Origin: a virus
IMG/VR virus record: IMGVR_UViG_3300042820_000065
Span: 4,934 to 68,933 of that record
Reading direction: 5' to 3' (one strand)
DNA: 64,000 nucleotides
The position numbers and the translations under genes were made by a program. This document shows, in pieces, positions 21,087-44,959 of the stretch (its first letter is position 1; each line of letters opens with the position of its first letter). Under the pieces are notes generated by a model. That model worked only from the letters and a program-made list of their open reading frames with translations. It made no database searches and was not told the origin of the DNA.

Positions 21087-21102
21087 GAGGAGGGCGGTAG
21101 CC

Positions 21103-22922: not shown

Positions 22923-22934
22923 AAAGGAGACGCC

Positions 22935-24552: not shown

Positions 24553-25358
24553 TGATGAACGAGGACTTCTCGCCCTGGGGCGACGATTTCGATGACACCG
24601 AGCCGAACGGCGAGTATGCCTGGCTGCGGACGAAGGTCGACACCCTGGTCCCGATGGACCTGGCGATCGAGACCGGCGGCCACGAAGAGGGGGACGCCGG
24701 AGACGATTGGGCGGACAACTCCGGCGCGGACCTGTCCGGCGAACCCGTTCCCGACGAGGATGGCTTCAGGCTCCCGGACGCTGGCCGGGGAGCGGTGAGG
24801 ACGGCCAGCAAGGCGGAGGTCACGGCGATCCTGAAGGGCCTGGGGTGGCGGATCCGGACTACCGGCGAATACCGACAGGCCGTCGGAAACTTCCAGGCCG
24901 CCTACGCTATCGGTGCGAAATTGACCGTCGATCGTGCGGTCGGACCGAAAACCAGTGCGGCGCTACGGCAGGCCGACTCCCGGCGCAAGACCGGCCTGCC
25001 GACGGCGAGCGCTCACTTCTCGCTGAAGGAGTTCGGCTGCAAGTGCGGTGGGAAGTACTTGGCCTGCGCCCGGATCTGGATCAAGCGGGCTCAGATCCTC
25101 GATCTCGAAAAGTACCGCCGAGATCTCGGGGCCGGAGTTCCGATCGTGTCCGGCTGTCGCTGCGTCGGACATAACCACGACGTCGGTGGCGTTCCGAAGT
25201 CGCGCCACATGGTCGGCGATGCCACGGACATGCCGGACCGCCGGAGTCCATCCTGGTTCCGCGCGCGGGGGATCGGCAATGGATTGGGGTACAACCATTC
25301 CAACAACGAGGTCCGTCACTTCGACCAGGGCGGCGTCCGCACCTGGATCTACGTCTAG
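24546..25358 (+). CDS. Endolysin 2: PG-binding + M15-type Zn peptidase
   Basis: HFSLKEFGCKCG, SGCRC..HN..VGGVPKSRHMVGDATD and RHFD motifs. Confidence 0.85.
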   Translation: MVMMNEDFSPWGDDFDDTEPNGEYAWLRTKVDTLVPMDLAIETGGHEEGDAGDDWADNSGADLSGEPVPDEDGFRLPDAGRGAVRTASKAEVTAILKGLGWRIRTTGEYRQAVGNFQAAYAIGAKLTVDRAVGPKTSAALRQADSRRKTGLPTASAHFSLKEFGCKCGGKYLACARIWIKRAQILDLEKYRRDLGAGVPIVSGCRCVGHNHDVGGVPKSRHMVGDATDMPDRRSPSWFRARGIGNGLGYNHSNNEVRHFDQGGVRTWIYV

Positions 25359-25370
25359 GAAGGCATCAAC

Positions 25371-25718
25371 ATGCTCGGCATCGAGAAACTGATCCAGTAC
25401 GTTCTGATCGCGGTCCTGGGATCGACCGGCGCGACCGCGCTGATCACCCGCGACTTCGACCGGACCGTGGTCATCGGCCTGGTCGTCACCGCGCTCGGTG
25501 CGGCGGGCACTTACCTGGCCGCGAACACCCCGCGCCAGCCGTGGGCGAAGCAGGCCGTCGGCATCTTCACCGCTGCCGTCCTGATCATCGTCGACGCCTG
25601 GACCGATCACACCTTCACTCCGGCCGAGGTCGTTCAGGTCATTCTGGCGGCCGTCGGGGCCTGGCAGGTCGGCACCGTAGCGAACACTCTGCACGGGCCT
25701 GCTCCGATCTCGGAGTAA
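25371..25718 (+). CDS. Holin
   Basis: 115 aa, four TM segments, directly after the endolysins. Confidence 0.7.
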   Translation: MLGIEKLIQYVLIAVLGSTGATALITRDFDRTVVIGLVVTALGAAGTYLAANTPRQPWAKQAVGIFTAAVLIIVDAWTDHTFTPAEVVQVILAAVGAWQVGTVANTLHGPAPISE

Positions 25719-25733
25719 GCCTCAAATCGGACA

Positions 25734-25769
25734 CGACGGCCCCGCTGGCTCCGACTGGCGGGGCCGTCG
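25734..25769 (+). terminator. GC-rich hairpin ending the late operon
   Basis: cgacggccccgc / gcggggccgtcg, a perfect 12-bp stem. Confidence 0.65.
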
Positions 25770-25833
25770 CCGTCCCATCACGCAGAGTCATTCGGCCAGG
25801 TGAGGGGGCTGGGTCGGCGACATGGATTAGGTC

Positions 25834-25922
25834 TGTACGCGATGTTTCCGCAGGACTCAATCTCTGCTAATGTTCCTCGTACGAAGAGAGAGTATGGACG
25901 TTGCGGAAACATCGCGTACACG
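25834..25922. repeat. Inverted-repeat element A (ori/att-like)
   Basis: tgtacgcgatgtttccgca (25834-52) and its exact reverse complement (25902-20) flank an AT-richer core; homologous to 63603-63721. Confidence 0.85.
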
Positions 25923-25966
25923 GCTCGGTCTTCGGTCCCGATGTTCTACGAATTGAGGCTCCTGCG

Positions 25967-28378
25967 ATGTCCCTGCAAGCCCTGGATTACGAAGGCTCCA
26001 CTCCGTTCCGACAGGCAGCGATGGCGCTGTGGAAGTCCGGATGGAGCAACCCCCTGCCGATCGGGAACGGCAAGAGCCTCCCGCCAGCGGGCTACACGGG
26101 ATACGAGGGTCGCTCCGTCTCCTGGCCGGATCTTCAAGCATGGCTCGACGACGAGAGCACCCCGCCGAACGTAGGCATCCGGCTACAGCAGACCGTCGTC
26201 GGGATCGACGTGGACGCCTACGACGACAAGCAGGGCGCGAGCACGATCCTCCTGGCCGAAGAGACGTTGGGAAACCTGCCCGCCACGTACACCAGCACGT
26301 CCAGAGGGCCCGATCAGCCGTCCCGGATCCACTTCTACAAGGTGCCGATCGGAACGTCCCTGAAGGGGGCGGAGCGGCGTTTCGTTGAGGCGTTCGGAGC
26401 GGACGTCGAGATTATCCACTTCGGTCATCGGTATGCCGTCGTCGCGCCGTCGATCCACCCTCGCACCGGCGCGGCCTATTGCTGGTACGACAAGAACGGT
26501 GACGCACTGAAGGACGTCCCGCCGATGGACGCCATTCCGGACCTGCCGCAGCCCTGGCTGGCTGTCTTCATCACCCCATCGGAAACCGCATCATCGCATC
26601 CGAGCGACGAAGAGCGACGCTTCACGGCCCAGGCGGCAGCGTCCTGGGTCGAGAGATATGCTCTGGCGAAACTTCGGAATGCACGGAACGGTGAGATTAA
26701 TACCAGGGTCAATGAGGCCGGTGCGGTGTTCTCGCACTTCGTGCCGCTGTTCTATTCGCAAGGCGAAGCAGAGCAGATGATCTGGGCCGCTCGGGCTGAA
26801 ACTGTCGCTGATGAGGCGACGGAGGATCGTGATCGCGGTTCGATGCGCTCTGGTCTCAGTACCGAGGGATGGAAAGCGACCAAACAAATTGAAGTGGACG
26901 ATGAAGTGTCTGCTGTCGATTTCTTTACTGATGCCAGACTCGGTCCTGAATTCGCGAAGGATCGTCTGGTTGGTAAGTACAAGTTCGCCAACAAAATGTG
27001 GCTGAAATGGGACGGCCGTCGCTGGGCCGAATGCACTGAGGATGCCGCTCTGGAAGAGGCCCGCGATTGGGTGGCCGGTCGCATGGAGGGTGCCGTACGG
27101 AAGATGCGAGACGGTGCTCCCTCTCGTCCGGACGGTAAGAATCTTATCGACTGCTGGAAAACGTTCATGAAGTTGGAGAGAGTGAAGGCCGTCCTTCGCC
27201 TGAGTCGTGGCGTCCCCGGCGTTGCCGCTTCGCTGGCCGACTTTGATAGGAATCGGGACATCCTGAATACCGCGTCCGGTATCGTCAACCTTCGCACCGG
27301 AGAACTTGCCCCGTCCGACCCGAAGGCAATGTGCATGAAGTTGGCTCCGGTTCGCTACGTAGCCGGAGCCGAGAGCAAGTCGTGGACGAAAGCCCTGGAG
27401 GCGGTTCCGGAGGACTGCGTAGATTGGTTCCAGATTTTCATGGGCCAGGCGATCACTGGTTACGAGCCGACCGAAGACCGACTGCTCGTCATGCAAGGAT
27501 CTGGCGAGAACGGCAAGACGTTGGTGTTATCGCTTGGGATCCGAAACGTGATGGGCGATTACTACACCGTTCTGGACGATAAGGTTCTTCTCGGCGAGCA
27601 GGGCAGTGGTCCAAGTCCTGAACTGATGGCGTTGCGCGGCGCTCGTATCGCCGTGCTGGAGGAGACGCAAGAAGCCCGGCATCTCGATACGCAGCGATTG
27701 AAAAAAATCGTCGGCACCGGAGTCTTGACCGGCCGCTATCTGTTCAAAGACACCGTTACGTTCGACACGTCGCACACGATGATCATCAACACGAATTATC
27801 TGCCTCGGGTGAAAGAGAACGATCGAGGAACGTGGCGTCGACTTATGACTCTTCCTTTTCCGTACACGTACGTCAAGGGGAATCATGAATTACGTGAAAA
27901 TCAGCGCGTAGGTGACGTGAAATTGAAATCGAAACTCAGTAGCGACGAAGCAAAAGAGGCAATCCTTGCGTGGTTGATTGAAGGTGCGAAACTCTGGTAC
28001 CAGAACGACAAGCAGATGGACGATGAGCCGAAGCGCGTAGAGGAAGCGACGACGAAGTGGCGGGCTGAGAACGATGTCGTCCTTTCATTCATTCAGGCTG
28101 GCATCATCGAGCCGAGCATTGGGAGCCATGTGCTTTCTACGGATCTTCTAACGGCCGTTAACGGTTACCTACGAGAGCAGGGCGCTCACGAATGGACGGA
28201 CAGACTGATGGCTGATCGCTTCGGCAATCATCCAATGATGGTGAATTCGCGTGTCGAGAAGAAGCGCGTTCGAGTGAATTCACCATCAGCCGGTCCGCTA
28301 TCTCGTCCAGTTCAGGCCCACGGCCTGCCGCCGACGAGCGGGACGTACGTCGCCTGGATCGGTCTGAAGTTCGCGTGA
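25967..28378 (+). CDS. Bifunctional primase/polymerase (Prim-Pol) fused to a P4/D5-like SF3 helicase
   Basis: N-terminal NVGI..GIDVD.YD..G..T..S..HFY. C-terminal D5_N region, Walker A GSGENGKT, VLEET and INTNYLP. Confidence 0.88.
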   Translation: MSLQALDYEGSTPFRQAAMALWKSGWSNPLPIGNGKSLPPAGYTGYEGRSVSWPDLQAWLDDESTPPNVGIRLQQTVVGIDVDAYDDKQGASTILLAEETLGNLPATYTSTSRGPDQPSRIHFYKVPIGTSLKGAERRFVEAFGADVEIIHFGHRYAVVAPSIHPRTGAAYCWYDKNGDALKDVPPMDAIPDLPQPWLAVFITPSETASSHPSDEERRFTAQAAASWVERYALAKLRNARNGEINTRVNEAGAVFSHFVPLFYSQGEAEQMIWAARAETVADEATEDRDRGSMRSGLSTEGWKATKQIEVDDEVSAVDFFTDARLGPEFAKDRLVGKYKFANKMWLKWDGRRWAECTEDAALEEARDWVAGRMEGAVRKMRDGAPSRPDGKNLIDCWKTFMKLERVKAVLRLSRGVPGVAASLADFDRNRDILNTASGIVNLRTGELAPSDPKAMCMKLAPVRYVAGAESKSWTKALEAVPEDCVDWFQIFMGQAITGYEPTEDRLLVMQGSGENGKTLVLSLGIRNVMGDYYTVLDDKVLLGEQGSGPSPELMALRGARIAVLEETQEARHLDTQRLKKIVGTGVLTGRYLFKDTVTFDTSHTMIINTNYLPRVKENDRGTWRRLMTLPFPYTYVKGNHELRENQRVGDVKLKSKLSSDEAKEAILAWLIEGAKLWYQNDKQMDDEPKRVEEATTKWRAENDVVLSFIQAGIIEPSIGSHVLSTDLLTAVNGYLREQGAHEWTDRLMADRFGNHPMMVNSRVEKKRVRVNSPSAGPLSRPVQAHGLPPTSGTYVAWIGLKFA

Positions 28379-28407
28379 TGGACTGGGTCTACAACTTCCT
28401 GTAGACT
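28379..28407 (+). promoter_or_regulatory. SigA-like promoter of the conjugation operon with an overlapping palindrome
   Basis: TGGACT-N17-TAGACT. GTCTACA-N6-TGTAGAC inverted repeat at 28387-28406. Confidence 0.55.
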
Positions 28408-28429
28408 CTGCAACTCAACGACGAGGGAG

Positions 28430-28711
28430 ATGCCCATGCACGCCGCGACCATACTTGCCAAGACTCCGAATATTGACCTGAACAGCGGCATGGATACCGT
28501 TCGGCTGCTGGCGATTGCAGCGCTTGGTGTCGCCCTGATTGTTGTGTCCGTGGCTGCCGTCTTCACGGCGGGCCGCCGGGGCAACGCGAGCAAGGGCGCA
28601 AGCATCGTCGGGACCGTCGCGCTCTGTCTGATCCCGGCCGGACTCGGCACCGGCATCATCGCCATCGCCTTCGGTCGGGCCCTGATCGGTCTTATCGGCT
28701 TCAGCGCGTGA
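28430..28711 (+). CDS. Small hydrophobic T4SS protein (pilin/VirB2-like position)
   Basis: GAGGGAG RBS; 2-3 TM segments; first gene of the operon leading to VirB4. Confidence 0.5.
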   Translation: MPMHAATILAKTPNIDLNSGMDTVRLLAIAALGVALIVVSVAAVFTAGRRGNASKGASIVGTVALCLIPAGLGTGIIAIAFGRALIGLIGFSA

Positions 28712-29220
28712 GCCTGCGCCAGGTCGCCGATGGGGCTGCGAGGCAGATGAAACGGGTGTGGCTCGGGCCGAAAGGGATGCGTTGGCCGTTCGATGCGACG
28801 TTCGTTCAGTTCGGCGTGGGCGTGCTGTTCGTCGTGGCCTACTTCTTCCTGCTCTGGCTGGTCGTGCCGCCGGTCATTGCGGTCGGGGTGGCCGTGTGGC
28901 AGTTCAGCACCCGGCTGGCCCGCCTCCTCTCGGCCGAACATGAGGTGCGTACTCGGCGTCTCCTGGCCGGTTCCTGCTGGCTCCTGCTGGTCCTCCTGGC
29001 CCCGAACCCGTCCCTCTGGGTGTTCCCCATGCCGTTCTGGCTCGCCGGTCCGGCAGCGGCCATCCTCGGCGTCCTGAGCGTGCGTCAGGTCGGTCGCTTC
29101 ATCGACTGGAACCGGCCGGTCGGGTACTGGCTCGCGATGCCCCGGCGCGTCGCGGCCGGGCCCCGGCTCCGGCCGGAGCGAGAGATCAATCCCGAAGCCC
29201 TGCGACTGGAGGAATCATGA
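28708..29220 (+). CDS. TcpE/VirB3-like conjugation membrane protein
   Basis: W.GP..MRWPF..TFVQFG N-terminus, multiple TMs, immediately upstream of VirB4. Confidence 0.6.
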   Translation: MSLRQVADGAARQMKRVWLGPKGMRWPFDATFVQFGVGVLFVVAYFFLLWLVVPPVIAVGVAVWQFSTRLARLLSAEHEVRTRRLLAGSCWLLLVLLAPNPSLWVFPMPFWLAGPAAAILGVLSVRQVGRFIDWNRPVGYWLAMPRRVAAGPRLRPEREINPEALRLEES

Positions 29221-31781
29221 GGAGAGCGACGCCGAAGCCATTCATGCTCGCGCCGGAAACGAAAGAGATCATCGACAACCTGATGCTGCTGCGGGATGGC
29301 CGGGTGCTGGCCGGTTACCGCATCGGCATCCAGCGCTGGGACTACACCGGAGACGACGAGAAAATCAACCGGATCCAGTCGGCCGCTGACGTTTACGGTG
29401 CCCTGGGTGGCCGCTTCTTCCACGAGCGGGTGACGACCCGCCCGCATCCGGTCCGCGATTGGGCTGCCGCTCTGGACCGGCGCACACCCAACCCTCTACC
29501 TCAGGTCGATGGTTGCGACGAGACCTGGAACCGGCACCTGGCGCGGATGCAGGCCCGCATCGCCTCAACCGGTATGGACGACAAGTTGGTCTTCCGGTAC
29601 TTCAGCGTCGGGACCGTGTCGCCGAAAGCGCACCTGCGGGACGGAACTGACGATGCGGTGATGGCGGCCTGGGTCGAGGAACGACGCCTTTCCGACATCG
29701 TGTCCGGTTGGAACGGACGCCGGATGACCGTTCGGGAGCAGGCGTGGCTGCGAGCCCGCAGCCTGGCCCCCGGAGTGCATCCGGACGCGAAGAACTATGA
29801 CGGACCGTGGCGCGAATCGTCCCTCCCCGCCCTGTCGAATGATGTCCGCTGGAGCGAGGAGCCTTTCGACCGGACCGTTGCGATCCGTGCGTGGCAGGAC
29901 GGGATGCGGCAGGATCGGGCGGTTCAGGTGCTCACGGTCAGCCGCATGGACGACCTGCGCTACCCCGACAGCGGACTGGAGCCGTGGCAGACCTACGCCG
30001 AGCGGGCCGTCGATGCTGACGGTCGCCCGTTCGGTGTCGAGTGGTCGATCGTCGGGTATTTGAAGACCGGCCAGGAGATCAAGGGCGCGGCCGAGATGGA
30101 CCTGCGGAAGGCCATCTACCTGGAACAGGACTACCGCGATCATCAGGAGCCACCGCCCGCATCGATCGAAAAGGGTATCGGCGTAGCGAAATCCACGCGG
30201 GATCAGGTGACCGAAGGCAACGCGACGGTCGCGGGCCGGTTCGTCGGCACGATCAACGTGCTGATCTCGGGCGAGGCTCAGTATCGGGACAGGCGGATGG
30301 TCAAGTCGGCTGCCGACGTCGTCGAGGAACGGTCTGCTGCGTTCGTCCGGCTCTACTCCGGCAACGACCTGCGGATGGAATTCACTGCGGCGCGGCCACA
30401 ATCGACGAAGTTGATCGAGACGATCGTCGGCGAGCCGCACGATCGGTTCTTCAATCAGCAGCAGGTCAGGCTCGATTACCTCGCAGCCGGTCTCCCGTCC
30501 GTCTCTACCGCAGTCGGTGACGGTGCCGGTCCCTACCTCGGCTACACGCGGGGCGCGGCCCGGCGGCCGTTCATGCACGACAGCCATTACGCCACGGAAG
30601 GGCGCGGAAACCTGGGGCGTGGCAACAACATGTGGCTCATTGCCGGAGCGCTCGGGTCCGGCAAGACGATGCTCGCGGGTAGCATTATCTACCAGGCGGC
30701 CCGGCGGAACGAGCGGTGTATCTTCTCCGACCCGTCCGGCCCGATGGCGAAACTGTGCAGCCTGCCGGAACTCGCTCCCCATTCGCAGGTGATCGACCTG
30801 TTGCAGGGTGACGACGGAATTCTCAACGTTCCCAGTCTCATTCGCGAGCCATGGGCCACGGAGTACGACAAGGAAGGGGAATGGGGCCGGGCCGTCGACC
30901 GGGCCAAGGCCGAGCGCCGTGACCTCGTCGTCGACATCGCCCGCCGGTGTCTCGATTCGGATCAGTATGCCGACCCGACGACGCTCGCCGTCCTGAGGGA
31001 GGCGGCCAGGAGAGTGGACTGGTACGCCACGAAGTCGCTCTGGGATCTGGTCGACCAACTGAACCTGGACGAGTCGCCTGCGGCGCGCGCGGTGGCCGCC
31101 TCCCTGGCCGACGCTTCTCAGGCCCCGTTCCTGCGACTGCTGTTCCCTCCACGCGGCCGGATCGGTACGGCGCAACAGTTCTCAGTGATGGACAAGCGGT
31201 TCACGGTCATCTGCACGCCCGGTATCACCCGCGCTCCCGATGGCGTGCCCCGCTCGGACTGGACCGACAAGGAGAAGGGCGCGGACGCGATCCTGCGGCT
31301 GGTGGCCCTGTTCACGGACCGGCTGATCTATACCAAGCCCCGTGACGAGCGGTGCGTTGTGATCTTCGACGAGGCCGAGAGCCTGACCGATTTCGGCCCC
31401 GGCCGGGGCTTCCTGTCCCGGCTTGGCCGCGACCATAGCAAGTGGAACACGGCCGTCTATCTGTGCGTGAAATCCATTAGCGAGCAGATGCTTTCGGGGG
31501 AGTTGAGGAACTTCCTGGCCGGTGCCTGGGTCGGGCGGATGGCGAATATCGATGCCGCTACGGACATGCTGAACGTGCTGAACGTCGCGGATCGCAAGCA
31601 TGCCCGCTCGCTGATGCGGCTGTCCGAGTCGGCCCCCGGCGAGTTCGTGCATCTGGATGCCGACGGCAACGTCGGTGGCGTCCGGATCGATCTCGACTAC
31701 CATCCCCGACTGAAGGCCGCACTCCTGACCAATCCGATGCCCGATGGTGTCGACGGCTGGAACACGGAGGTGACGGTGTGA
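29217..31781 (+). CDS. virB4: VirB4-family conjugation ATPase (TcpF/ConE-like)
   Basis: 854 aa. Walker A AGALGSGKT, FSDPSG, Walker B VVIFDEAE, GRDHSKWN..V...SI and C-terminal LDADGNVG.V.ID match the Gram-positive VirB4 layout. Confidence 0.88.
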   Translation: MRRATPKPFMLAPETKEIIDNLMLLRDGRVLAGYRIGIQRWDYTGDDEKINRIQSAADVYGALGGRFFHERVTTRPHPVRDWAAALDRRTPNPLPQVDGCDETWNRHLARMQARIASTGMDDKLVFRYFSVGTVSPKAHLRDGTDDAVMAAWVEERRLSDIVSGWNGRRMTVREQAWLRARSLAPGVHPDAKNYDGPWRESSLPALSNDVRWSEEPFDRTVAIRAWQDGMRQDRAVQVLTVSRMDDLRYPDSGLEPWQTYAERAVDADGRPFGVEWSIVGYLKTGQEIKGAAEMDLRKAIYLEQDYRDHQEPPPASIEKGIGVAKSTRDQVTEGNATVAGRFVGTINVLISGEAQYRDRRMVKSAADVVEERSAAFVRLYSGNDLRMEFTAARPQSTKLIETIVGEPHDRFFNQQQVRLDYLAAGLPSVSTAVGDGAGPYLGYTRGAARRPFMHDSHYATEGRGNLGRGNNMWLIAGALGSGKTMLAGSIIYQAARRNERCIFSDPSGPMAKLCSLPELAPHSQVIDLLQGDDGILNVPSLIREPWATEYDKEGEWGRAVDRAKAERRDLVVDIARRCLDSDQYADPTTLAVLREAARRVDWYATKSLWDLVDQLNLDESPAARAVAASLADASQAPFLRLLFPPRGRIGTAQQFSVMDKRFTVICTPGITRAPDGVPRSDWTDKEKGADAILRLVALFTDRLIYTKPRDERCVVIFDEAESLTDFGPGRGFLSRLGRDHSKWNTAVYLCVKSISEQMLSGELRNFLAGAWVGRMANIDAATDMLNVLNVADRKHARSLMRLSESAPGEFVHLDADGNVGGVRIDLDYHPRLKAALLTNPMPDGVDGWNTEVTV

Positions 31782-33613
31782 GGCGCATCCGGATCGTCAT
31801 TCTCGCAGCCCTGGCTGCCGTCCTACTGCTCGCCTTCACCGCCCCGTCGGCGAAGGCCGTCGGCATTCCTGGGATCGACCTGTGTCCGAAGACGGCTCCG
31901 TTCGCAGCCTTGCCGAACGAGGGCCTGATCGGTGTGGTCGGTGAACAGCCGCAGCAGATCAGCAGTTTCAGCACATCGACCATCTGGTCAAATGGTGGAT
32001 TCGCCGGAATGTATACCACCCCATACGATCTCGGGTGCGCAGCGAACCCGGCGTCGTATCTGAAGTTGGGGTCGGCGAAAGCCAATGCGGCCACGACGAA
32101 CGCGATCCTCGGCGTCGGCTACATGGCCACGTCCGTCACGGACTCGATCGACCGACGGGCCTGGGCCCCGCAATGGATCGGTGCCTTCCTGGGCGACTTC
32201 ACGAGCCGAGCGACCGACGTCATCAGCACGAAGATCATCTATCCATTGCTCGGACTGGGCCTGATCGTCTCGTCCTGCTACATGCTGATCCGTTTCCGGG
32301 GCGGCAACGTGGCCGGAGCATCGTCTGCCGTCGGGTGGGTCTTCATCGTCCTGGCCCTCACCGCATTCGTCATCATCAGCCCCGTCTTCATCTCCTCCAG
32401 TACGCAGCGGGCCGGTGATATCGCGGTCTCGACTCTGAATGGTGGTGATAATGCATCGGATTCAACGACCGATCGAATCGTTGAGGCCGTCCACTATCAG
32501 GGCTGGCTACGCCGTACGTTCGGAACTGCCGATTCGCCGGTCGCGAAGAAGTATGGCCCGAGCCTGCTCGCGTCGGAACGTATCTCCTGGGCCGAACTCG
32601 CCTCGAACAACGATCCGGACGAGATCAAGGCATTGCGGACCGAAAAGGCCAAGCAGTTCAAGGAAATCGCTGCCAACGTCAAGGATGAGGATCCGGGCGC
32701 GTACCGCTGGCTGACCGGCGAGGCGGACGGTTCCGGCATCGCCCTGACGGAAACCCTGTACGCGCTGACGGCGTCGTTCTTCCGGTTCGCCGTCGACCTC
32801 CTGCTCGTCATGGCCACCATCCTGATCGCCATCCTCTGCCTGGTCTGGCTGGCCGGATCGCCCTACTTCGTGACCCCGTTCGGTCGGATAACCGCTGTCG
32901 GGGTACTGAATTCGACGGTCCGGTCGGTCGTCTACGTGCTTGAGGCGGCCGTCGGGTCCTGGCTGTTCGGGATCTACATGCAGGTCTCGATGCAGCCCGG
33001 CCAGAGTACCTGGTGGTCAATCCTGCTCCTGTTCGTCGGGACGCTGACGGCATGGACACTGATCCGGCCGGACCGGAAGATGCTCGCGCTGGCCACGATG
33101 GGCCATGTTCGCGGCCACGGCCGGATCGTCCGGCTCCTGACGACGATGGCGATGGCTTACCTCGGCGGTCGTACGGCAGGACGGGCTGCGGCCCGGCAGT
33201 TCCAGGAGGAGGAGGTCGACATCACGCCCGGCCGCAGCGAGGACTACGTCGCTGCTCCGCTGGGCCAGCCGGTCCACGTCCGGGTCCGGCCGGTCATGGC
33301 CGACGAGCGGGGCATCGACTCTCCGGCGGCTCCGGCGGGCGTGGTCGAGGGCGAGGTCATCTGGGACTCGGCGGACATGCCGACCCTGCCGAGCGGCGAC
33401 GTCTATCAGCGACCGCTCGCGCCGGACGGGCCGATGCCGACGCCTCCTCCGGCCGGTTCGCTCGGCGAGGTCGAGGTCTATCAGCGACCCACGCCGGTTC
33501 ACGAGGATGATCAGTACGTAACATGCCCTTGGTGCCACGGCAACGGCTGCGGCCATTGCGAATATGATGGCGTCATACCGAAATGGGTGCGGGATCAGGT
33601 GAGTCCGGAATGA
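31778..33613 (+). CDS. VirB6/TcpH-like polytopic membrane protein
   Basis: Signal-like N-terminus, about 7 TM segments, Pro-rich cytoplasmic tail; follows VirB4. Confidence 0.7.
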   Translation: MRRIRIVILAALAAVLLLAFTAPSAKAVGIPGIDLCPKTAPFAALPNEGLIGVVGEQPQQISSFSTSTIWSNGGFAGMYTTPYDLGCAANPASYLKLGSAKANAATTNAILGVGYMATSVTDSIDRRAWAPQWIGAFLGDFTSRATDVISTKIIYPLLGLGLIVSSCYMLIRFRGGNVAGASSAVGWVFIVLALTAFVIISPVFISSSTQRAGDIAVSTLNGGDNASDSTTDRIVEAVHYQGWLRRTFGTADSPVAKKYGPSLLASERISWAELASNNDPDEIKALRTEKAKQFKEIAANVKDEDPGAYRWLTGEADGSGIALTETLYALTASFFRFAVDLLLVMATILIAILCLVWLAGSPYFVTPFGRITAVGVLNSTVRSVVYVLEAAVGSWLFGIYMQVSMQPGQSTWWSILLLFVGTLTAWTLIRPDRKMLALATMGHVRGHGRIVRLLTTMAMAYLGGRTAGRAAARQFQEEEVDITPGRSEDYVAAPLGQPVHVRVRPVMADERGIDSPAAPAGVVEGEVIWDSADMPTLPSGDVYQRPLAPDGPMPTPPPAGSLGEVEVYQRPTPVHEDDQYVTCPWCHGNGCGHCEYDGVIPKWVRDQVSPE

Positions 33614-34122
33614 GAAAACTGGTCAATTGGATCTTCTACTCGAAAGAGAATCTGACCCTGGCCTTCGTTACCATGATCACCGTCATGGCCGTGGCCTTCC
33701 TGGTGTTCGTCCTGATCCAGATCCCGAAAGGTGGAGGGGCCGGTTCGCCCGTTTATCCGACCGCGACCGCCCGGCCCATCCACACCGAACTCATCCCGCC
33801 GACGACGGAGGCCCTGCCGACGATCACGAAGTCGTACGGCCCGTCCCAGCCGATCGCGCTGGAGGCCGCAGACGCCTTCCTCTCGCACGATCTGATCCGG
33901 TTCGGACGGGTGGCTCTGCCTGCTGCCGTTGAGGCCGTCAGCGACGCGCCAGAGCCTCCCGCTGCCGCCCGGGACGTGACCGGCCCGGTCGTCGTCCGCC
34001 AGGGCGGCACGACGCAGCAGACGGACGAGATCCCGACGTCCGGAGGCATGCTTCAACTGGTCATGGTGATCTCCGGCGGCCGGTGGCAGGTCAGCATGAT
34101 CCGATACGCCCCGCTGACCTGA
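33610..34122 (+). CDS. VirB8/TcpC-like bitopic protein
   Basis: Single TM, Pro/Thr linker, then an NTF2-like domain ending L.MV..GGRWQV. Confidence 0.5.
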   Translation: MRKLVNWIFYSKENLTLAFVTMITVMAVAFLVFVLIQIPKGGGAGSPVYPTATARPIHTELIPPTTEALPTITKSYGPSQPIALEAADAFLSHDLIRFGRVALPAAVEAVSDAPEPPAAARDVTGPVVVRQGGTTQQTDEIPTSGGMLQLVMVISGGRWQVSMIRYAPLT

Positions 34123-34166
34123 GCGGATAGACTGGGAAGCCCAGACCAAAAGACAGGGTGGACCCA

Positions 34167-34694
34167 ATGGCAATCGTGGCAGCGGACATCGTAAAGCGTT
34201 TCAGCGTATCGGCGGCGGCCGGTGACACGACGGCCGGAACAGCGGCCACGTCACTCGGCGACCAGATCTCAACGACCGCAATCACCGACGCGACGCTGAA
34301 CAACCTCTTCGACGACGTGTCCGGCGCGGAAGCGGCTGCCGGGATGGTCGACTACCGGTGCATCTTCGTTCTGAACAACCACGCCACGCTGACGCTGACC
34401 GGCGCGAGCATCACGATCCTGAGCCAAACCGCGCTCGGTGGCCTGATTGACATCGCGCTCGACAACATCGCCATCTCGGCGAAGGCCAGCGCATCGGCCC
34501 AGGCCGCAGCGATCGGAGCCGAAACCACCACGCCAACGGGTATCGGGGCGTTCGGGGCTGGCCCGCTGGCCATCGGTGATATCGCACCCGGTCAGGTGAA
34601 GGGCGTCTGGCTCCGCCGGACCGTGACCGCTGGCGCTGCCGCTCTGAACCCCGACGGCGTGATCCTGCGCATCTCCGGCGACACCCTCCCGTAA
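34167..34694 (+). CDS. Virion-type structural protein (gene 1 of fibre-like cassette B)
   Basis: MAIVAADIVKRFS..SLG.QIS..NNLFDDVSG.E..AG.VDYRC is a common phage hypothetical pattern. Confidence 0.55.
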   Translation: MAIVAADIVKRFSVSAAAGDTTAGTAATSLGDQISTTAITDATLNNLFDDVSGAEAAAGMVDYRCIFVLNNHATLTLTGASITILSQTALGGLIDIALDNIAISAKASASAQAAAIGAETTTPTGIGAFGAGPLAIGDIAPGQVKGVWLRRTVTAGAAALNPDGVILRISGDTLP

Positions 34695-34704
34695 GGGCTG
34701 ATCA

Positions 34705-36270
34705 GTGACGGCTCTGAGCAACACATTTGAGGGAGGCACGTCCGGAACCAACATCACGGTCGGGAACTCCGGCGGTGGTTCCGGCGACGCCTTCAGCGCG
34801 GTGTCGGTCGATGCCGCGTCGACCTGTGCGTTCGATACGTCACGAGCCGGTCATGGCCTTCAATCGCTGAAGATCGTCGGGTCGAGCAACACCGACTATG
34901 TAGCATGGACGATCTCGGGAAGTGCGGCTTATTTCCGCTGGACGTTCAGCGCTGATGCGGCACCGGCGTCGAACTCAAACATCTTCCGAATCCTCAACGG
35001 TACGACCATTATGGCCACCGTCAGGATCAACTCGACCGGGAAACTGGCGTTCCTCTACTCGTCTGGAACGCTCGGAGCAACCACCACGAACTCGGTCAAT
35101 CTGAACGGGACGTTCTTCCGGATCGAGATGTCCATCGACGCATCGGCCGGAAACATCACCCTCTACCTGTTCAACTCGCAGGATAGCAGCACGCCGACGG
35201 AAACCATCTCGGTCACGAGCAAGGCCCTGGGTGCAACGACGATGACGTCGGCCCGGCTCGGCTTCGTCGCGAACAACACATGGACGTGCTGGCTCGACGA
35301 TTTCGCCTACTCCGACGTCGGTTTGATCGGCCCCGTCTCATCCGGAACGGTCGTTACCTCCGACCTGGATCTCAGATGGCCGGTCCGTTCCATCGCGACG
35401 TCAGACCTGGATCTCCGCTGGCCGGTCCGTTCCATCGCGACGTCAGACCTGGATCTCCGCTGGCCGGTCCGTTCCATCGCGACGTCAGACCTGGATCTCA
35501 GATGGGCCGTCCGATCGGCGATCACATCGGACCTCGATACACGCTGGGCCGTCCGATCGGCGATCACATCGGACCTCGATACACGCTGGGCCGTGCGGTC
35601 TTCCGTCGTCTCGGACCTCGATACACGCTGGATCGTCAGGGCACTCCTGGCCTCGGACCTGGATCTCAGATGGGCCGTTCGGCATCTGGTCACTTCAGAT
35701 CTCGACCTTCGCTGGTCGGTTCACTCTGCCGTCACTTCAGATCTCGACGTCCGCTGGGCCGTGCGCTCGATCGTCGCGTCCGACCTTGACCTGCGCTGGG
35801 CCGTTGATGCTTCGGTCGGTGTCGTCAATTCCGATCTGAATCTCCAATGGGCGCAGCGGAACTCGGTCACATTCGACTCAGACCTACGATGGTCGGTGCG
35901 GGCCGCTATCGCGTCCGATCTGAATCTGTGCTGGGCCGTTCGGTCTTCCGTCGGTTCGGATCTCGACGTCCGCTGGCTAGTGACCGGTTCGGTCGTCAGT
36001 GACGCCGACCTGCGGTGGTCCGTCCGTTCGGTAGTCGTATCCGACGCCGATCTGCGGTGGTCGATTCGGTCCGTCCTGACATCCGATGCCGATCTTCGCT
36101 GGGCCATCAGGTCTTTCGTGCTATCGGAGTTGGATCTCCGCTGGCGTGTCCTGAACGATGGGCAGCGGAACGTCACCCTGGCCGCTCTCCTGGCCGATCA
36201 GCCTTTCACTTCTGCCGTCCTGGCGAGTCGGCCAGGACGGACTGCCACGTTAGGAGCCCAGAATGGCTAG
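34705..36270 (+). CDS. Fibre/adhesin-like protein: lectin-like N-domain + 19 x 14-aa repeats (gene 2 of cassette B)
   Basis: NTFEGG..W.DD beta-sandwich, then (T/V/A)SDLDLRWxVRSxx repeats. Confidence 0.7.
   Translation: MTALSNTFEGGTSGTNITVGNSGGGSGDAFSAVSVDAASTCAFDTSRAGHGLQSLKIVGSSNTDYVAWTISGSAAYFRWTFSADAAPASNSNIFRILNGTTIMATVRINSTGKLAFLYSSGTLGATTTNSVNLNGTFFRIEMSIDASAGNITLYLFNSQDSSTPTETISVTSKALGATTMTSARLGFVANNTWTCWLDDFAYSDVGLIGPVSSGTVVTSDLDLRWPVRSIATSDLDLRWPVRSIATSDLDLRWPVRSIATSDLDLRWAVRSAITSDLDTRWAVRSAITSDLDTRWAVRSSVVSDLDTRWIVRALLASDLDLRWAVRHLVTSDLDLRWSVHSAVTSDLDVRWAVRSIVASDLDLRWAVDASVGVVNSDLNLQWAQRNSVTFDSDLRWSVRAAIASDLNLCWAVRSSVGSDLDVRWLVTGSVVSDADLRWSVRSVVVSDADLRWSIRSVLTSDADLRWAIRSFVLSELDLRWRVLNDGQRNVTLAALLADQPFTSAVLASRPGRTATLGAQNG
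35356..36162 (+). repeat. Tandem 42-bp coding repeat, 19 units
   Basis: Units counted from the translation. The first units are near-identical DNA (tcagacctggatctccgctggccggtccgttccatcgcgacg). Confidence 0.93.
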
Positions 36271-36559
36271 TACGCTGACGCAATGGAGCCTTGCGGCCGA
36301 GACGAAAGAGTGGGTCGGCCCGATCACGGTGCTGGTCGATGACGATCCGGTGACTGGGTTCGAGATCGCCCTGACCGAGCCCGGAGCGCGGCCGACGACT
36401 TGGTCCAGCCCGACCGCCCTCGATGAAGGTCAGGGAGCCCTGGTCGGTGTCGGAACATCCTTCCCACTGGTACCGTTCAAGATATATACCCTCTGGGTCA
36501 GGTACACCGACAGCCCAGAGGTTCCGGTGCAGAAATGCGGAGAGATCAAGGTCTACTAG
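36263..36559 (+). CDS. Small beta-rich protein (gene 3 of cassette B)
   Basis: 98 aa; Y.LWVRYTDSPEVPV C-terminus, BppU-like. Confidence 0.5.
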   Translation: MASTLTQWSLAAETKEWVGPITVLVDDDPVTGFEIALTEPGARPTTWSSPTALDEGQGALVGVGTSFPLVPFKIYTLWVRYTDSPEVPVQKCGEIKVY

Positions 36560-36562
36560 CCC

Positions 36563-37450
36563 ATGAAGCCAGTCATCGCAGCGGTTATCGCCGCGCCGGT
36601 GGCTGGCCTTGCCGCCATCAGTCTCTCCCTGAGCCTGGTGACCGGCGGAGTCCCGAGTTTCAATGGGGGCGCCGTCGCTGCGCTGACGCATACGACATGC
36701 TCTGTCGGCGCCGGTCCTATGGATGGGCAGAAGGTCGCCGCTCTTGCCTATGCCGCAGGCTGGCGTGGCGAAGACCTATCGATCGCGGTGGCCATCGCAC
36801 GGGCTGAATCGAACTGGAGCGCTACGGCCAGGAACCTCAACGCCGACGGATCCACGGACTTCGGCCTGTTTCAGATCAACAGCGTGCATGCGTCGATCCT
36901 GGCCGGAGGCGACTGGGCCGATCCGGCTGCGAATGCCGTGATGGCACACCAGGTCTGGCTTGAAGCGGGAGGCTCGTTCTCCCCATGGGTCACGTTCTGG
37001 GACGGCACGTACCGACGCTACCTGGTCGACGTCACGACGTCCTGTACTGCAACGGATCCCGGAGCCGGTCCGCAGGGTGCTGACGGGCTGCGGCCCCGGG
37101 CGGAGAATGTGAAAGGGCTGGCCACGAGCCGCTGGGGAATCACGGACGTCGGCGGCTACTCATACCGTGTCATCGCTGGGACCGGCGTGCTGTCCGATCA
37201 CGCTGCCGGTCGAGCCGTCGACATCATGCTCGGGACGGACTACCAGTCCGCCGCGAAACGAGTCGAGGGCTACGACATCTCGCGATTCTTCGCAGAGAAT
37301 GCCGCAGCCCTCGGAGTGAAGTACGTGATCTACTACGACCAGATCAACACCGGGTCAGGTTGGCGTCCGTACCATCATCCGGGATGTGCCAACCCGTGCC
37401 GCGATCCGAACCTGGAACACCAGAACCACGTTCATGTGTCGGTGAAGTAG
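36563..37450 (+). CDS. Lytic transglycosylase with C-terminal peptidase-like domain (VirB1/CwlT role)
   Basis: N-terminal TM, AIARAES..DFGLFQIN (SLT), then SDHAAGRAVD..HQNHVHVS. Confidence 0.82.
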   Translation: MKPVIAAVIAAPVAGLAAISLSLSLVTGGVPSFNGGAVAALTHTTCSVGAGPMDGQKVAALAYAAGWRGEDLSIAVAIARAESNWSATARNLNADGSTDFGLFQINSVHASILAGGDWADPAANAVMAHQVWLEAGGSFSPWVTFWDGTYRRYLVDVTTSCTATDPGAGPQGADGLRPRAENVKGLATSRWGITDVGGYSYRVIAGTGVLSDHAAGRAVDIMLGTDYQSAAKRVEGYDISRFFAENAAALGVKYVIYYDQINTGSGWRPYHHPGCANPCRDPNLEHQNHVHVSVK

Positions 37451-37575
37451 GACTCGTCCAGATCGACTGGAATCAGATCGCCATCCTCGTTGACGCGATA
37501 TAACTGGTTGCCGTCATTCAGGATCTCGATGATCAGCCTGCCGATACGGATCAGTTCTTCGTCGCTCAGGTTCAC
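37432..37575 (-). CDS. Hypothetical protein
   Basis: GTG start overlaps the upstream stop; converges on the T4SS operon. Confidence 0.4.
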   Translation of the reverse strand: MNLSDEELIRIGRLIIEILNDGNQLYRVNEDGDLIPVDLDESYFTDT

Positions 37576-37763
37576 AGCGTCGCGCGGCCGGTCTTGGCGA
37601 GATCCCAGACCACGTTGGCGGCCTGAATCCACGCCTCCCGGATGGTTTCCGACTGTTCGTCGAACGTCGGCAGGGGTTCACCGTGAATCGACTTGAAGTC
37701 GACCTTCCGGCAGTAGGCCGTGTACGCGATACGGCCCCTGGATTCCCTCGTGGTGGTTGTCAT
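37572..37763 (-). CDS. Hypothetical protein
   Basis: GAGGG RBS; coupled; 63 aa. Confidence 0.55.
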   Translation of the reverse strand: MTTTTRESRGRIAYTAYCRKVDFKSIHGEPLPTFDEQSETIREAWIQAANVVWDLAKTGRATL

Positions 37764-38332
37764 TACGGTTCCCTCTCGACTCTGCTGGTCAGGTTGACGT
37801 GGTTGCATCGGCGGTACTCTTCGATCCGTACGTCCAGTCCCTGCAACTGGTAGTCCGTCAGGTGCGACTGGATCTCGCGTAGCACATCGCCCTCGCGCCC
37901 GTTCAGTTCGAGCCACTCGCTCGATTCATGCACACCGTCGTCCATGTCGATGATCCGGTACTGGATGTGGTGCCCGTGCGCGTTCGCATCTGAATGGACG
38001 ACGACGATCTGCTCAGTCACGGTGTGACTGCCGTCTTTTCGTTGCTTCAGGGCCTGTACTTCGTAGTAGACCGCCCGCAATAGATCGTCCGGACTGAGCG
38101 CATCGACGTTCAGATGTCCCTGGCCAAGTTCCATCAGGATTCTCGGCAGCCATGCGCTGTCCCGCAGCGCTTCTCGCGATTCAGCGGACACATTCTCTCC
38201 TCTCGGTTCTGATCCGTCGGTTGGAATGATGACTTCGACATAAATATCGGGAGTACGGGTCTCCCTCGCGAGGGCCGCGAGATCATCGAGAGGCGTGCCC
38301 GACCAATCGTCCCCGACGTAATGGATCGTCAC
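37763..38332 (-). CDS. Hypothetical protein
   Basis: GTG at 38332 overlaps the upstream stop. Confidence 0.55.
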   Translation of the reverse strand: MTIHYVGDDWSGTPLDDLAALARETRTPDIYVEVIIPTDGSEPRGENVSAESREALRDSAWLPRILMELGQGHLNVDALSPDDLLRAVYYEVQALKQRKDGSHTVTEQIVVVHSDANAHGHHIQYRIIDMDDGVHESSEWLELNGREGDVLREIQSHLTDYQLQGLDVRIEEYRRCNHVNLTSRVEREP

Positions 38333-38769
38333 ATCCGACCCTTGAAGTAGTCGGGGTCGTGGTGGTGCGGCTCCATATCGTTCGGTTCCCGGTGCAACTG
38401 GTCGTGCCAGTGCCGGAGCGCGGCCAGGTGAGCCTCCCCGTTGCCGGTCACCTTGTGGAAGAGGTAGCCGTGGGACAGGAGGCTGGCGGGGTCGGAGAAG
38501 ACGGACGGGACCAGCCAGACATCGTTCGGCCCTTTCCGTGCCACCTCTTCTCCGCCGAGTACGACCTGCGTGATGGCCTTCGCCTTCTCCATCTCCAGCG
38601 CGGCCGTCGAGATCACCTCGACCTGGCCTTTCGGCTCGCCGATGAACGGCGGCCGATGCTCGCGAGTCAGCGTAACCTGGGGGCCTCTCCTGGCCGAGAT
38701 CTCCCAGGTGTAGCCATCTTTCCCGCGCACCAGGTCGCCGACATCGAGGTCGGACCAGTCCATCATCAT
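38329..38769 (-). CDS. Hypothetical protein
   Basis: Coupled ORF with an SH3-like N-terminus (LDVGDLVRGKDG.TWEI). Confidence 0.6.
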   Translation of the reverse strand: MMMDWSDLDVGDLVRGKDGYTWEISARRGPQVTLTREHRPPFIGEPKGQVEVISTAALEMEKAKAITQVVLGGEEVARKGPNDVWLVPSVFSDPASLLSHGYLFHKVTGNGEAHLAALRHWHDQLHREPNDMEPHHHDPDYFKGRM

Positions 38770-38996
38770 CAGGTCCTGTCCTTCGTGATGAGTTTCCGAC
38801 ACCTCTGGCAGTCATCCATGTAGCGCAGGCACGTCCGCTCGATCTGCGAGCCGGTTCCGTACCAACCGCCGCCGAACCACTTCGGGCCTGCACCGCAGCG
38901 GGCGGACGCCATGCTGCTAGGCGACTTCCGGTCGTCGAGGAAATGCGCCTTCCCCTGACTGCTGAGAAATAGCCGCTGGTACCCCTTCTCGTCCAT
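38769..38996 (-). CDS. Small Cys-containing hypothetical protein
   Basis: Coupled; ARCG..CQRC. Confidence 0.55.
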   Translation of the reverse strand: MDEKGYQRLFLSSQGKAHFLDDRKSPSSMASARCGAGPKWFGGGWYGTGSQIERTCLRYMDDCQRCRKLITKDRT

Positions 38997-39277
38997 CAGC
39001 CCACCTTGGCGGATCGGGTCAGGATGCCGATCAGATGCTCGGTCTGCTTCAGGATGAGAAGGGTCTCCAACGACAGGTCCTGGATCTCGTAGCCGGGGTT
39101 GGACGAACTGGTCGCGACGACGAGCGCCTTCCAGCCGGACAGCATGATGTTCGCGGCAGTGCCGATCTGTTGCGCGTCCCTAGTCGTGATGCTGCTGTCG
39201 AGCACGGCCGCGAGGACGAGCGCGTTGATGTCCGTCAGCAGGTCGCCGCGCGGACCGAACAGGTTCCCGATGCTCAT
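38996..39277 (-). CDS. Hypothetical protein, first gene of the leftward operon
   Basis: GGGAGG RBS; downstream of a leftward promoter. Confidence 0.6.
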   Translation of the reverse strand: MSIGNLFGPRGDLLTDINALVLAAVLDSSITTRDAQQIGTAANIMLSGWKALVVATSSSNPGYEIQDLSLETLLILKQTEHLIGILTRSAKVG

Positions 39278-39290
39278 CGTGCCTCCCGTG

Positions 39291-39346
39291 GAGTTGTAAA
39301 GTCGGGACCAGAGTAGTTGACGAGTTGTAAAGAGTCAAGGTATCGT
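39291..39346. promoter_or_regulatory. Overlapping divergent promoters with two TTTACAACTC boxes
   Basis: Minus strand TTGACT(39338-33)-N17-TACTCT; plus strand TTGACG(39317-22)-N18-TATCGT. Boxes at 39291-300 and 39322-31. Confidence 0.7.
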
Positions 39347-39390
39347 CGGGCTGACAGAAACCGCAGGTAGATCGCCCATGGAGGGTACAA

Positions 39391-39570
39391 ATGGCACTTG
39401 AGGCCAACTACACCGATGGCTTCGGCGTCGTCGTCAGACCCGAGACCAAGGCGGTGATCAGGGAGGCCGCGAGGAAGCGGCACGTCAGCATGGCCCAACT
39501 CGTCCGGGACGCGCTCGATGCTCATCTCGACCTGATCGACGGGCGTCCGAAGAAGAGGCGCCGGGCCTGA
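39391..39570 (+). CDS. Ribbon-helix-helix (CopG-like) DNA-binding protein
   Basis: Not in the ORF track (59 aa). FGVVVRPETKAVIREAARKRHVSMAQLVRDALDAHL; GGAGGG RBS. Confidence 0.75.
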   Translation: MALEANYTDGFGVVVRPETKAVIREAARKRHVSMAQLVRDALDAHLDLIDGRPKKRRRA

Positions 39571-39776
39571 TGTTCGATACGGTCTGGTGCGTCGTGCTGG
39601 TCGTCCCCGGTTCCGGGCTCCGCGTCGTCTCGCGGCACGTCACCAGGCCGTACGCCGTGCTGATGTCAGCCCCCTACGGCCGGGCAAGAGTCATGCACGA
39701 GCGGGACGTAAGAGAGATTCAGGCCATCTATCTCAGGAGCAAACTGCATGAAGCACGTCAATATTCGCCACGTTGA
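39570..39776 (+). CDS. Hypothetical protein
   Basis: TGATG coupling. Confidence 0.45.
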   Translation: MFDTVWCVVLVVPGSGLRVVSRHVTRPYAVLMSAPYGRARVMHERDVREIQAIYLRSKLHEARQYSPR

Positions 39777-40212
39777 TCCGTTCGGATACCTCGTCAGCGA
39801 GACCTATTCATACCTGGCTGCCGCCCGCCAGGACGCGGGACCGGGCGACCAGACCGTGACCACGGACCAAGCCGCCGCCATGCTCATGCAGGAGGCGCAG
39901 GAGTCGGATCGTCGGCTGCGGATCGCCAAGCACATGAAGAACATGAGCACCGTTCTGGACGAGAACGCCCTCCTGAAGAACCAGACCCTCACCGCGCCCG
40001 AACCGACGCTGGCCCTGTCGGACGTCCCGGAGAAGGTCTGGACCATGCTCGCGTCGCTCCGGCTCGCGATGCACGGCGTCGGGCACGTCCGACCCCGAAT
40101 CCTGGCCGATGGCAGGGCATCTACGCATGAGGTCGAGTTGGTTCTGGCCGAACACGAGGTCGCTGAACTGCTGGAGAGACTGTCGGTGGCTGGCGAGAAG
40201 GTGACCACATGA
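39748..40212 (+). CDS. Hypothetical protein
   Basis: 154 aa; coupled to the exonuclease gene. Confidence 0.55.
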   Translation: MKHVNIRHVDPFGYLVSETYSYLAAARQDAGPGDQTVTTDQAAAMLMQEAQESDRRLRIAKHMKNMSTVLDENALLKNQTLTAPEPTLALSDVPEKVWTMLASLRLAMHGVGHVRPRILADGRASTHEVELVLAEHEVAELLERLSVAGEKVTT

Positions 40213-44432: not shown

Positions 44433-44464
44433 CAACTCTTCTACAGGTGGTGCATACTGGTCAC
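44429..44464 (+). promoter_or_regulatory. Conserved phage promoter
   Basis: TTGACA-N18-CATACT-GGTCAC. Confidence 0.8.
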
Positions 44465-44495
44465 GCAAGCCAAGGCGAACTCAACGGAGGCCAGC

Positions 44496-44786: not shown

Positions 44787-44959
44787 ATGATCCCCTGCCC
44801 TACCCGACCGAGGAGGAATTCATGGGTGGCCTGTTCAAGTGCAACTGCGGCAACTCGTTCGACACGAACATCGAACTTCAATTCCATCGCAACAGCACGC
44901 ATCTCGCTTCAACGGTAGTTGCGCTGCCGAAGATCCTCTGGAAGCGGAAGAACCGCTGA
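44783..44959 (+). CDS. Small Zn-finger-like protein
   Basis: FKCNCG..F......H....H. Confidence 0.45.
   Translation: MNDPLPYPTEEEFMGGLFKCNCGNSFDTNIELQFHRNSTHLASTVVALPKILWKRKNR

Follow-up and report, generated by a model that had tools for sequence, protein, structure and literature searches.

In Streptomyces coelicolor, six co-transcribed genes, cmdABCDEF (SCO4126-4131), encode five membrane proteins and the VirB4-like CmdB, and no relaxase is among them (PMC2782261). CmdB is membrane-associated and needs conserved lysines for function, deletion of the operon affects sporulation, chromosome segregation and actinorhodin production, and the cmd genes were reported to resemble genes of the plasmid SLP2, on which six co-transcribed genes of this kind were reported to be required for conjugal transfer (PMC2782261). 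Comparable component sets are found in the minimal type IV secretion systems (T4SSs) of Firmicutes (pCW3 Tcp, ICEBs1 Con, pIP501 Tra and pCF10 Prg). Among phages, an early large VirB4/TrwB/FtsK-like ATPase lies beside small membrane proteins in SPP1 (gp31.1-gp31.2-gp32), where a translocon was proposed (PMC6316719), and the Streptomyces plasmid-phage pZL12 is described as combining tailed virions and a conjugal transfer locus on one actinomycete replicon (Zhong et al. 2010, as cited in PMC3583192 and PMC4487206). Here, an operon at positions 28430 to 37450 of a 64,000-nucleotide viral stretch (the window; bases 4934-68933 of the 76,061-bp contig of IMG/VR record IMGVR_UViG_3300042820_000065) was analyzed. 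The operon appears to be a complete monoderm-type minimal T4SS, or mating-pair-formation module, and it lies inside the genome of a tailed phage.

Nine plus-strand open reading frames (ORFs), with stops and starts that overlap or nearly abut, make up the operon. The ATPase gene (29217-31781, 854 aa) matched Pfam AAA_10 at E 1.3e-18 (67.7 bits against a cut-off of 27.5), and the best NCBIfam match of the protein was TcpF, the ATPase of pCW3 (E 2.7e-16, far below the equivalog cut-off of the TcpF model). Walker A residues G480, G482 and K483 and Walker B residues D718 and E719 were invariant across 15 diverse relatives. Homologs of the ATPase fell into 47 clusters, all metagenomic, several of them on contigs of 63-83 kb. 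Directly downstream, a 611-aa polytopic membrane protein (31778-33613) starts with a signal-like N-terminus, followed by a helical core in the membrane and by a tail that is disordered. Its AlphaFold2 model was of moderate quality overall (predicted local distance difference test, pLDDT, 64; core 70-90), and the only confident PDB matches were to TrwI/VirB6 of R388 (8rtd_L, probability 1.0, template modeling score 0.52; also 8rt9_F and 7o3v_J), with further matches to AlphaFold database clusters named TrbL/VirB6 (E down to 1.6e-13), which marks it as a VirB6-like channel protein. The disordered cytoplasmic tail (33530-33590) ends in a zinc-ribbon-like CxxCxGxGCxxC motif.

The next gene (33583-34122, 179 aa; true start likely at 33610, an ATG overlapping the stop codon of the preceding gene) encodes a VirB8-like bitopic protein with one transmembrane helix, a proline-rich linker and a C-terminal NTF2-like domain modeled at pLDDT about 95. 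Foldseek comparison of this model with the PDB returned generic NTF2 matches only, with E above 0.001; the assignment was resolved by an exhaustive fold comparison covering 48,161 chains, of which the best four were DotI (Z 10.2), an IcmL-like protein (9.9), TraM (9.8) and VirB8 (9.2). Further matches included the Firmicute proteins TraM of pIP501 (Z 9.1), PrgL (8.6) and TcpC (8.3), and TraH of pIP501 was also present. The last gene of the operon (36563-37450, 295 aa) encodes a membrane-anchored wall hydrolase of two domains, with an N-terminal anchor, a lytic transglycosylase domain (SLT_3 E 6.7e-14, SLT E 5.3e-06) and a C-terminal H-x6-D ... H-x-H motif of LAS-type metallopeptidases. This two-domain design is typical of monoderm T4SS hydrolases; in relatives, SLT is paired with M23, VanY/VldE or NlpC/P60-CHAP.

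Two small membrane proteins precede the ATPase. The first cassette gene (28430-28711) has a ribosome-binding site and encodes a protein of 93 aa with two hydrophobic helices by hydropathy, in the position of ConC/TcpD; homologs at the same position were found in seven related phage loci, and family profile searches returned no family match. The second (28708-29220) encodes a 170-aa polytopic membrane protein directly upstream of VirB4, in the position of VirB3/ConD/TcpE, with an N-terminal WLGPxGxRWPFD motif and an NRPxxYW motif kept in 13 relatives and family membership unproven. A predicted complex of this protein with the N-terminal half of VirB4 scored 0.12, below the mark, and is evidence neither for nor against contact. 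A preliminary description of the window had listed a coupled operon of a small protein with two transmembrane helices, a TcpE-like protein, a VirB4 ATPase with Walker A/B motifs, VirB6-like and VirB8-like proteins and an anchored lytic transglycosylase, and had read it as a Gram-positive mating-pair-formation set; apart from the TcpE label, discussed below, these assignments were borne out, on the plus strand and at the positions it gave, and the metallopeptidase motif is an addition to them.

The surrounding DNA is a genuine tailed-phage genome, with terminase, portal, HK97-fold capsid, tape measure and lysis genes on one molecule, in agreement with the context originally proposed. The source contig is linear, with a CheckV completeness estimate of 98%. 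A gene of 552 aa in the terminase position lies upstream of the window, and the left half of the genome encodes an SPP1-type portal, a scaffold protein, an HK97-type capsid protein, a 1550-aa tape measure and large tail proteins. The virion and lysis block ends in an endolysin gene (24546-25358, plus strand; phrog_894, E 5.6e-16), and a Prim-Pol/D5-type primase-helicase gene (25901-28378, plus strand; Prim-Pol, D5_N and DUF5906 domains; phrog_1156, E 1.5e-110) lies directly upstream of the cassette. In the right half, small early-type genes follow a repeated promoter-like motif, together with genes for an exonuclease, endonuclease VII, JAB, YdjM and papain-like proteins and an HNH-FtsK fusion. 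The capsid protein was 65% identical to capsids of Arthrobacter phages (e.g., Eileen and Judy). The lineage consists of siphovirus-like soil phages with genomes of 65-83 kb, all uncultured, whose hosts are probably Actinomycetota (high-GC Gram-positive bacteria).

Relatives were found by an alignment-based scan of viral contigs (a single-protein scan returned nothing). The cassette layout was common to at least 14 related contigs from different samples, and in every context examined (NCBI contig JAGELC010000018.1 of a metagenome-assembled genome (MAG); JGI, ENA and Logan contigs; eight IMG/VR contigs) the cassette came after tail genes and an endolysin and was followed by replication genes; the loci with this arrangement after tail and lysis genes include L002, L004, L005, L006, L036 and the IMG/VR loci L008-L015. 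In the relatives, a gap of 250-430 bp precedes the cassette, which would therefore have its own control region there; in this genome the cassette follows the primase gene. Capsid (63-80% identity), VirB4 and HNH-FtsK (38-44%) genes were on one molecule in all three relatives that were at least 96% complete, one of which (77,934 bp) has direct terminal repeats that close the genome; co-occurrence of VirB4 with capsid genes, for which the preliminary description had proposed a search, is thus seen throughout these genomes. The cassette is a stably inherited core module of the phage lineage.

Among deposited phages such genes are scarce, as had been supposed of tailed phages in general. Megablast of the operon against phages gave no match, and tblastn of VirB4 against 50,697 deposited phage records gave two Firmicute records, matched over the C-terminal half only at 22% identity, one of them in a gene annotated as a conjugative-transposon protein and the other in an unannotated record. 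The literature searched contained no account of a tailed-phage lineage with the full VirB4/VirB6/VirB8/hydrolase set, and the word 'bacteriophage' is absent from a 2025 T4SS nomenclature review.

Closer relatives were found on actinobacterial replicons. In a plasmid collection, full-length VirB4 matches of 27-29% identity occurred in Streptomyces, Nonomuraea, Pseudonocardia, Rhodococcus and Prescottella plasmids, annotated 'ATP-binding protein' in Streptomyces, Nonomuraea and Rhodococcus. The linear Streptomyces plasmid NZ_CP029542.1, which stands in here for SLP2 (SLP2.19-23 / pQC542.1c-6c type), carries a six-gene layout of 89, 121, 899, 784, 177 and 345 aa beside a divergent FtsK/SpoIIIE gene and ParA. 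Gene order and sizes agree with those of the phage: two small transmembrane proteins, an ATPase of about 900 aa, a large polytopic protein, a bitopic protein of about 180 aa and a hydrolase. Among the second to sixth genes, homology was detected for four: the ATPases aligned at 29% identity (E 1.3e-82), the 611-aa protein matched the 784-aa plasmid protein at 24% identity (blastp E 7e-29, profile E 1.5e-78), the VirB8-like profile matched the 177-aa gene (E 1.4e-14), and a profile of the 170-aa family built from 13 relatives matched the 121-aa gene (E 5.6e-07) and its counterpart in genome G231 (E 1.8e-09). The hydrolases gave no blastp match to each other, that of the plasmid being NlpC/P60 and that of the phage SLT plus LAS, and the plasmid differs further in having ParA and no virion genes. 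The phage operon likewise has the six-gene cassette layout of six co-directional genes for five membrane proteins and a VirB4-like ATPase, which also occurs in L007, L032 and related phages; cmdABCDEF, likened to it by layout and by its published description (PMC2782261), differs in being chromosomal and developmentally regulated.

VirB4 matches at E 1e-10 or better were present in 12 of 401 sampled Actinomycetota genomes. A stand-alone cassette of 88, 160, 864, 629, 190 and 347 aa, the last gene carrying NlpC/P60-CHAP, was found in an Actinomycetota MAG (L007; CAWIXB010000001.1, 6254-13074), and may represent the donor type, or else a phage remnant that became domesticated. In a tree built by maximum likelihood, the VirB4s of the phages formed one clade (support 99) with the L007 copy as its sister (support 100), and the Streptomyces plasmid and chromosomal versions fell outside the phage and MAG group. 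Because the phage proteins are monophyletic, with the MAG copy as sister and the Streptomyces versions outside, the tree suggests that the phage lineage acquired the cassette once, long ago, and has passed it on vertically since; the phage VirB4s diverge to 41% identity with catalytic residues kept, a sign of constraint. The comparisons indicate that the phage genes derive from the six-gene cassette that Streptomyces plasmids and actinobacterial chromosomes carry (SLP2 tra / cmdABCDEF kind), and not most closely from the Tn916/ICEBs1/pCW3 class to which it had been assigned. A related cassette was also seen in G318 (L028/L029, joined coordinates 14531-23073), an actinobacterial genome of 7 Mb and 73% G+C, in which VirB4 (1282 aa) has a disordered Ala/Arg/Glu-rich N-terminal extension of roughly 430 residues.

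A second plasmid-type component is encoded by the HNH-FtsK gene (51621-53204, minus strand, 527 aa; Pfam FtsK_SpoIIIE and HNH), the product of which comprises an HNH nuclease, a hydrophobic segment and an ATPase. The ATPase part was 29% identical over 375 aa (E 3e-32) to the TraB-like FtsK encoded beside the NZ_CP029542.1 cassette, and the best database matches were the FtsK proteins that many actinobacterial plasmids encode (E as low as 2e-36); in cultured phages, the match was confined to about 200 residues, corresponding to the ATPase core (E 1e-11). Phage and Streptomyces plasmid thus share a related FtsK/TraB-like protein; that of the plasmid is adjacent to the cassette, divergent and without HNH, whereas that of the phage is an HNH fusion and distant. 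The fusion was present in four of five related viral genomes, and three Streptomyces plasmids appeared in both the VirB4 and the FtsK match lists. It is the only candidate DNA motor or coupling protein in the genome. Since VirB4 cassette and FtsK both match actinobacterial plasmids, the phage lineage appears to have kept both halves of the actinobacterial plasmid transfer apparatus.

Other described systems share parts of this arrangement. The Firmicute T4SSs have the same minimal component set as the phage, the ICEBs1 gene order ConC-ConD-ConE-ConG-CwlT is similar, TcpF and the fold matches TraM and TraH of pIP501, PrgL and TcpC are theirs, and pCW3 uses an FtsK-like coupling protein (TcpA), the candidate in the phage being FtsK-like too. 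The phage differs from them in its very low sequence identity (22% over half of VirB4 to genes of Firmicute integrative and conjugative elements, ICEs), in giving no relaxase match and in its phage context. As described in PMC3583192 and PMC4487206, the plasmid pZL12 carries ParA/ParB and, for transfer, a tra gene of the TraB type with two genes next to it, whereas the phage lacks a ParA/ParB match; none of the pZL12 and pSLE1 records in the plasmid collection yielded a VirB4 of the phage family. The SPP1 early cassette has no VirB6-like, VirB8-like or hydrolase partners.

That the operon forms a channel through which the HNH-FtsK motor moves phage DNA from cell to cell is the leading reading, held tentatively and rated somewhat short of an even chance. 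It is favored by the identities of the components, by their conservation in a genuine phage lineage, by the plasmid ancestry of both the cassette and FtsK, and by the reported need for SLP2 genes of this kind in conjugal transfer. The six cassette proteins would build an envelope-spanning channel, through membrane and wall, in the infected cell, with a VirB4 hexamer docking on the VirB3/VirB6/VirB8-like partners and the hydrolase opening the peptidoglycan. As its motor, comparable to TraB or TcpA, the membrane HNH-FtsK protein would cut or grip phage DNA and drive it, probably in double-stranded form and relaxase-free, into a touching cell or neighboring compartment, and the phage would gain a receptor-independent second route of spread beside its virions. 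In its full form, in which apparently virulent tailed phages use two routes, virions and relaxase-free, contact-dependent pumping of double-stranded DNA through a T4SS-like channel of their own driven by HNH-FtsK, the proposal is possible but doubtful.

Several results weigh against cell-to-cell DNA transfer. Six-frame profile searches of the whole 76-kb genome gave no relaxase match in the three families searched, PF03432 (MobA-type), PF08751 (TrwC) and PF02486 (Rep_trans), and no match to VirD4 (PF02534), to tyrosine or serine recombinases, or to the partition proteins ParB (ParB_N) and ParA (AAA_31); nor was an oriT recognized, no search having been aimed at it. The genome therefore looks virulent, and is predicted to be unable to perform classical relaxase-driven transfer. 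(A phage-plasmid was considered and rejected on the absence of ParA/ParB and integrase matches, other maintenance genes being conceivable.) The FtsK-HNH gene is 14 kb from the cassette and on the opposite strand. None of the 13 members of the 170-aa family matched Pfam TcpE or VirB3, so that either label is unproven and the name TcpE-like reflects position and topology only. The L007 cassette stands alone in a housekeeping context, between genes for an M20 peptidase and an InhA-like protease, with no mobility genes nearby. Transfer between hyphae, as first suggested, was a guess at the host, and the cultured phages with the nearest capsids infect non-mycelial Arthrobacter. Finally, deletion of cmdABCDEF left transfer of an SLP2-derived plasmid unchanged and revealed a role in sporulation and segregation (PMC2782261); the cassette type is thus not bound to conjugation.

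This last result also speaks for a Cmd-like manipulation of the host, acting on chromosome segregation, septation or sporulation, with no DNA transfer between separate cells; phage DNA could, for example, be loaded into spores or daughter compartments. Cells deleted for cmdABCDEF branch aberrantly, form anucleate spores and are defective in septation (PMC2782261), the L007 cassette, sister to that of the phages, stands alone on a chromosome, and the relaxase searches gave no match. A Cmd-like role is nevertheless considered unlikely, given that the phage also retains a plasmid-type FtsK translocase and that on plasmids the cassette is linked to transfer; moreover, the connection to SCO4126-4131 is by description (PMC2782261), not by direct sequence comparison, and the host is not known to sporulate. 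An envelope channel serving some other phage purpose, such as secretion of phage proteins or effectors, exclusion of superinfecting phages or incoming plasmids, or local wall remodeling that aids release, would agree with the repeated exaptation of T4SSs for protein secretion (PMC12857230), with the non-essential early VirB4/TrwB-like ATPase and membrane partners, of unknown role, in the lytic phage SPP1 (PMC6316719), and with the constant position of the relatives' cassette after lysis genes and behind the intergenic gap. Against this, no candidate effector is conserved beside the cassette, a set of VirB3/4/6/8, hydrolase and DNA translocase exceeds the needs of lysis or exclusion, and SPP1 gp32 was not retrieved by sequence from the phage VirB4 and has no detectable relation to it; such a use, which with the Cmd-like role is the main rival of DNA transfer, is likewise considered unlikely. 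The plasmid origin of the cassette and the tolerated three-gene insertion in this genome would also fit inert or recently captured plasmid or ICE cargo with no phage role, but this is very improbable, as the six genes are intact and in the same place across a clade in which identity falls to 41% and the catalytic residues do not vary, and a packaged genome would not be expected to keep seven to nine kilobases of dead weight. An assembly chimera, or a prophage contig fused to a neighboring ICE, can for practical purposes be dismissed: the window comes from a metagenomic contig without end repeats, yet independent contigs bridge the junctions without differences at equal depth, the layout recurs across samples, one relative is closed by terminal repeats, and G+C content is uniform along the genome (0.59-0.65).

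The bridging evidence was as follows. Logan contigs of the probable source run (27.7 kb and 13.4 kb) span 23000-35406 and 35565-40000 with 0 differences at depths of 11.5 and 11.2, the sole break falling inside 42-bp tandem repeats, and both junctions singled out beforehand as in need of read support (25.7-29 kb and 37-38 kb) are covered. An independent soil run from another study contained identical short contigs from tail, lysis, primase and T4SS genes at similar depth.

A full monoderm T4SS module, together with a candidate plasmid-type DNA pump, is thus retained throughout a clade of complete phage genomes. If the module moves DNA, these phages could spread without free virions or receptors, models of phage host range, resistance and gene flow in soil Actinomycetota would change, and the phages would offer a bacterial counterpart of viral cell-to-cell movement that bypasses receptor-based resistance. 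The cassette would then also be a tractable minimal T4SS of six genes and no relaxase, and the unexplained operon of the cmdABCDEF kind could be tested against a genetically simpler background. Any other role of the module would still be a new viral use of T4SS parts.

Between the VirB8-like and hydrolase genes, three phage-type genes (34158-36559, plus strand) interrupt the cassette. The first (34158-34694, 178 aa) belongs to a phage-only family (phrog_13135, E 3.2e-23), with nearest ESM Atlas clusters that were 91-100% viral. The second (34705-36270, 521 aa) encodes an N-terminal domain followed by about 17 tandem repeats of 14 residues (SDLDLRWAVRS..), which form 42-bp tandem arrays at the DNA level, and matched phrog_2448 weakly. 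The third (36263-36559, 98 aa) has one homolog, 48% identical, in L002, where it lies upstream of the cassette behind a 705-aa gene. In none of 15 related loci were insert genes found inside the cassette, and the 98-aa gene alone has a homolog; the insert is a mobile phage-type gene set. The preliminary description had called it a fibre-like cassette with the layout of one in the head operon and had taken this as a link to the virion half. Blastp of the three proteins against every ORF of the genome showed no similarity, so a structural link to the head operon is unsupported by sequence and the resemblance is one of layout only; a PHROGs search of the head-operon genes gave no match. A soil metatranscriptome held pieces of the cassette region, which is weak evidence of expression, DNA carry-over being possible. 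One of them, a 1317-nt contig that covers the 178-aa gene and runs into the beginning of the 521-aa gene (33843-35159), had the highest depth of the region (9.4), a hint, with the same proviso, that the insert is well expressed.

Promoter and terminator scanning of 23-40 kb gave sites no commoner than in shuffled sequence. About 10 promoter-like sites (TTGAC..N..GTGCATRATRGTCAC) were found in the early region (44427-62718) and none within 28.4-37.5 kb. The early promoter box also reported from the late region does exist (6750-6791), but in reverse orientation, and is a weak link to the virion half. A 55-nt element upstream of the primase gene (25868-25922) recurs at 63653-63707 with 78% identity, the second copy belonging to a 33-nt inverted repeat (63603-63635 with 63689-63721); the two copies may flank the non-virion half as a common element for regulation or replication. 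Nearby, a tandem array (63007-63137) of 7.3 copies of an 18-bp unit (GTGAGTGAGTGAGTGTCG) lies inside or overlaps a minus-strand ORF (62736-63353); candidate explanations are a coding repeat, iterons and a clt-like array recognized by the FtsK-type protein. After the portal gene, a 708-aa ORF (872-2998) matched the Pfam Intein_splicing domain over residues 291-590 (E 6.5e-06, below the gathering score). Genes for a YdjM-like membrane protein, a prokaryotic JAB protein and a papain-like peptidase were located at 45988-48871, and in the distant relative L006 (17091-21814) JAB, YdjM and an AcrVA2-like gene lie near the FtsK-HNH gene.

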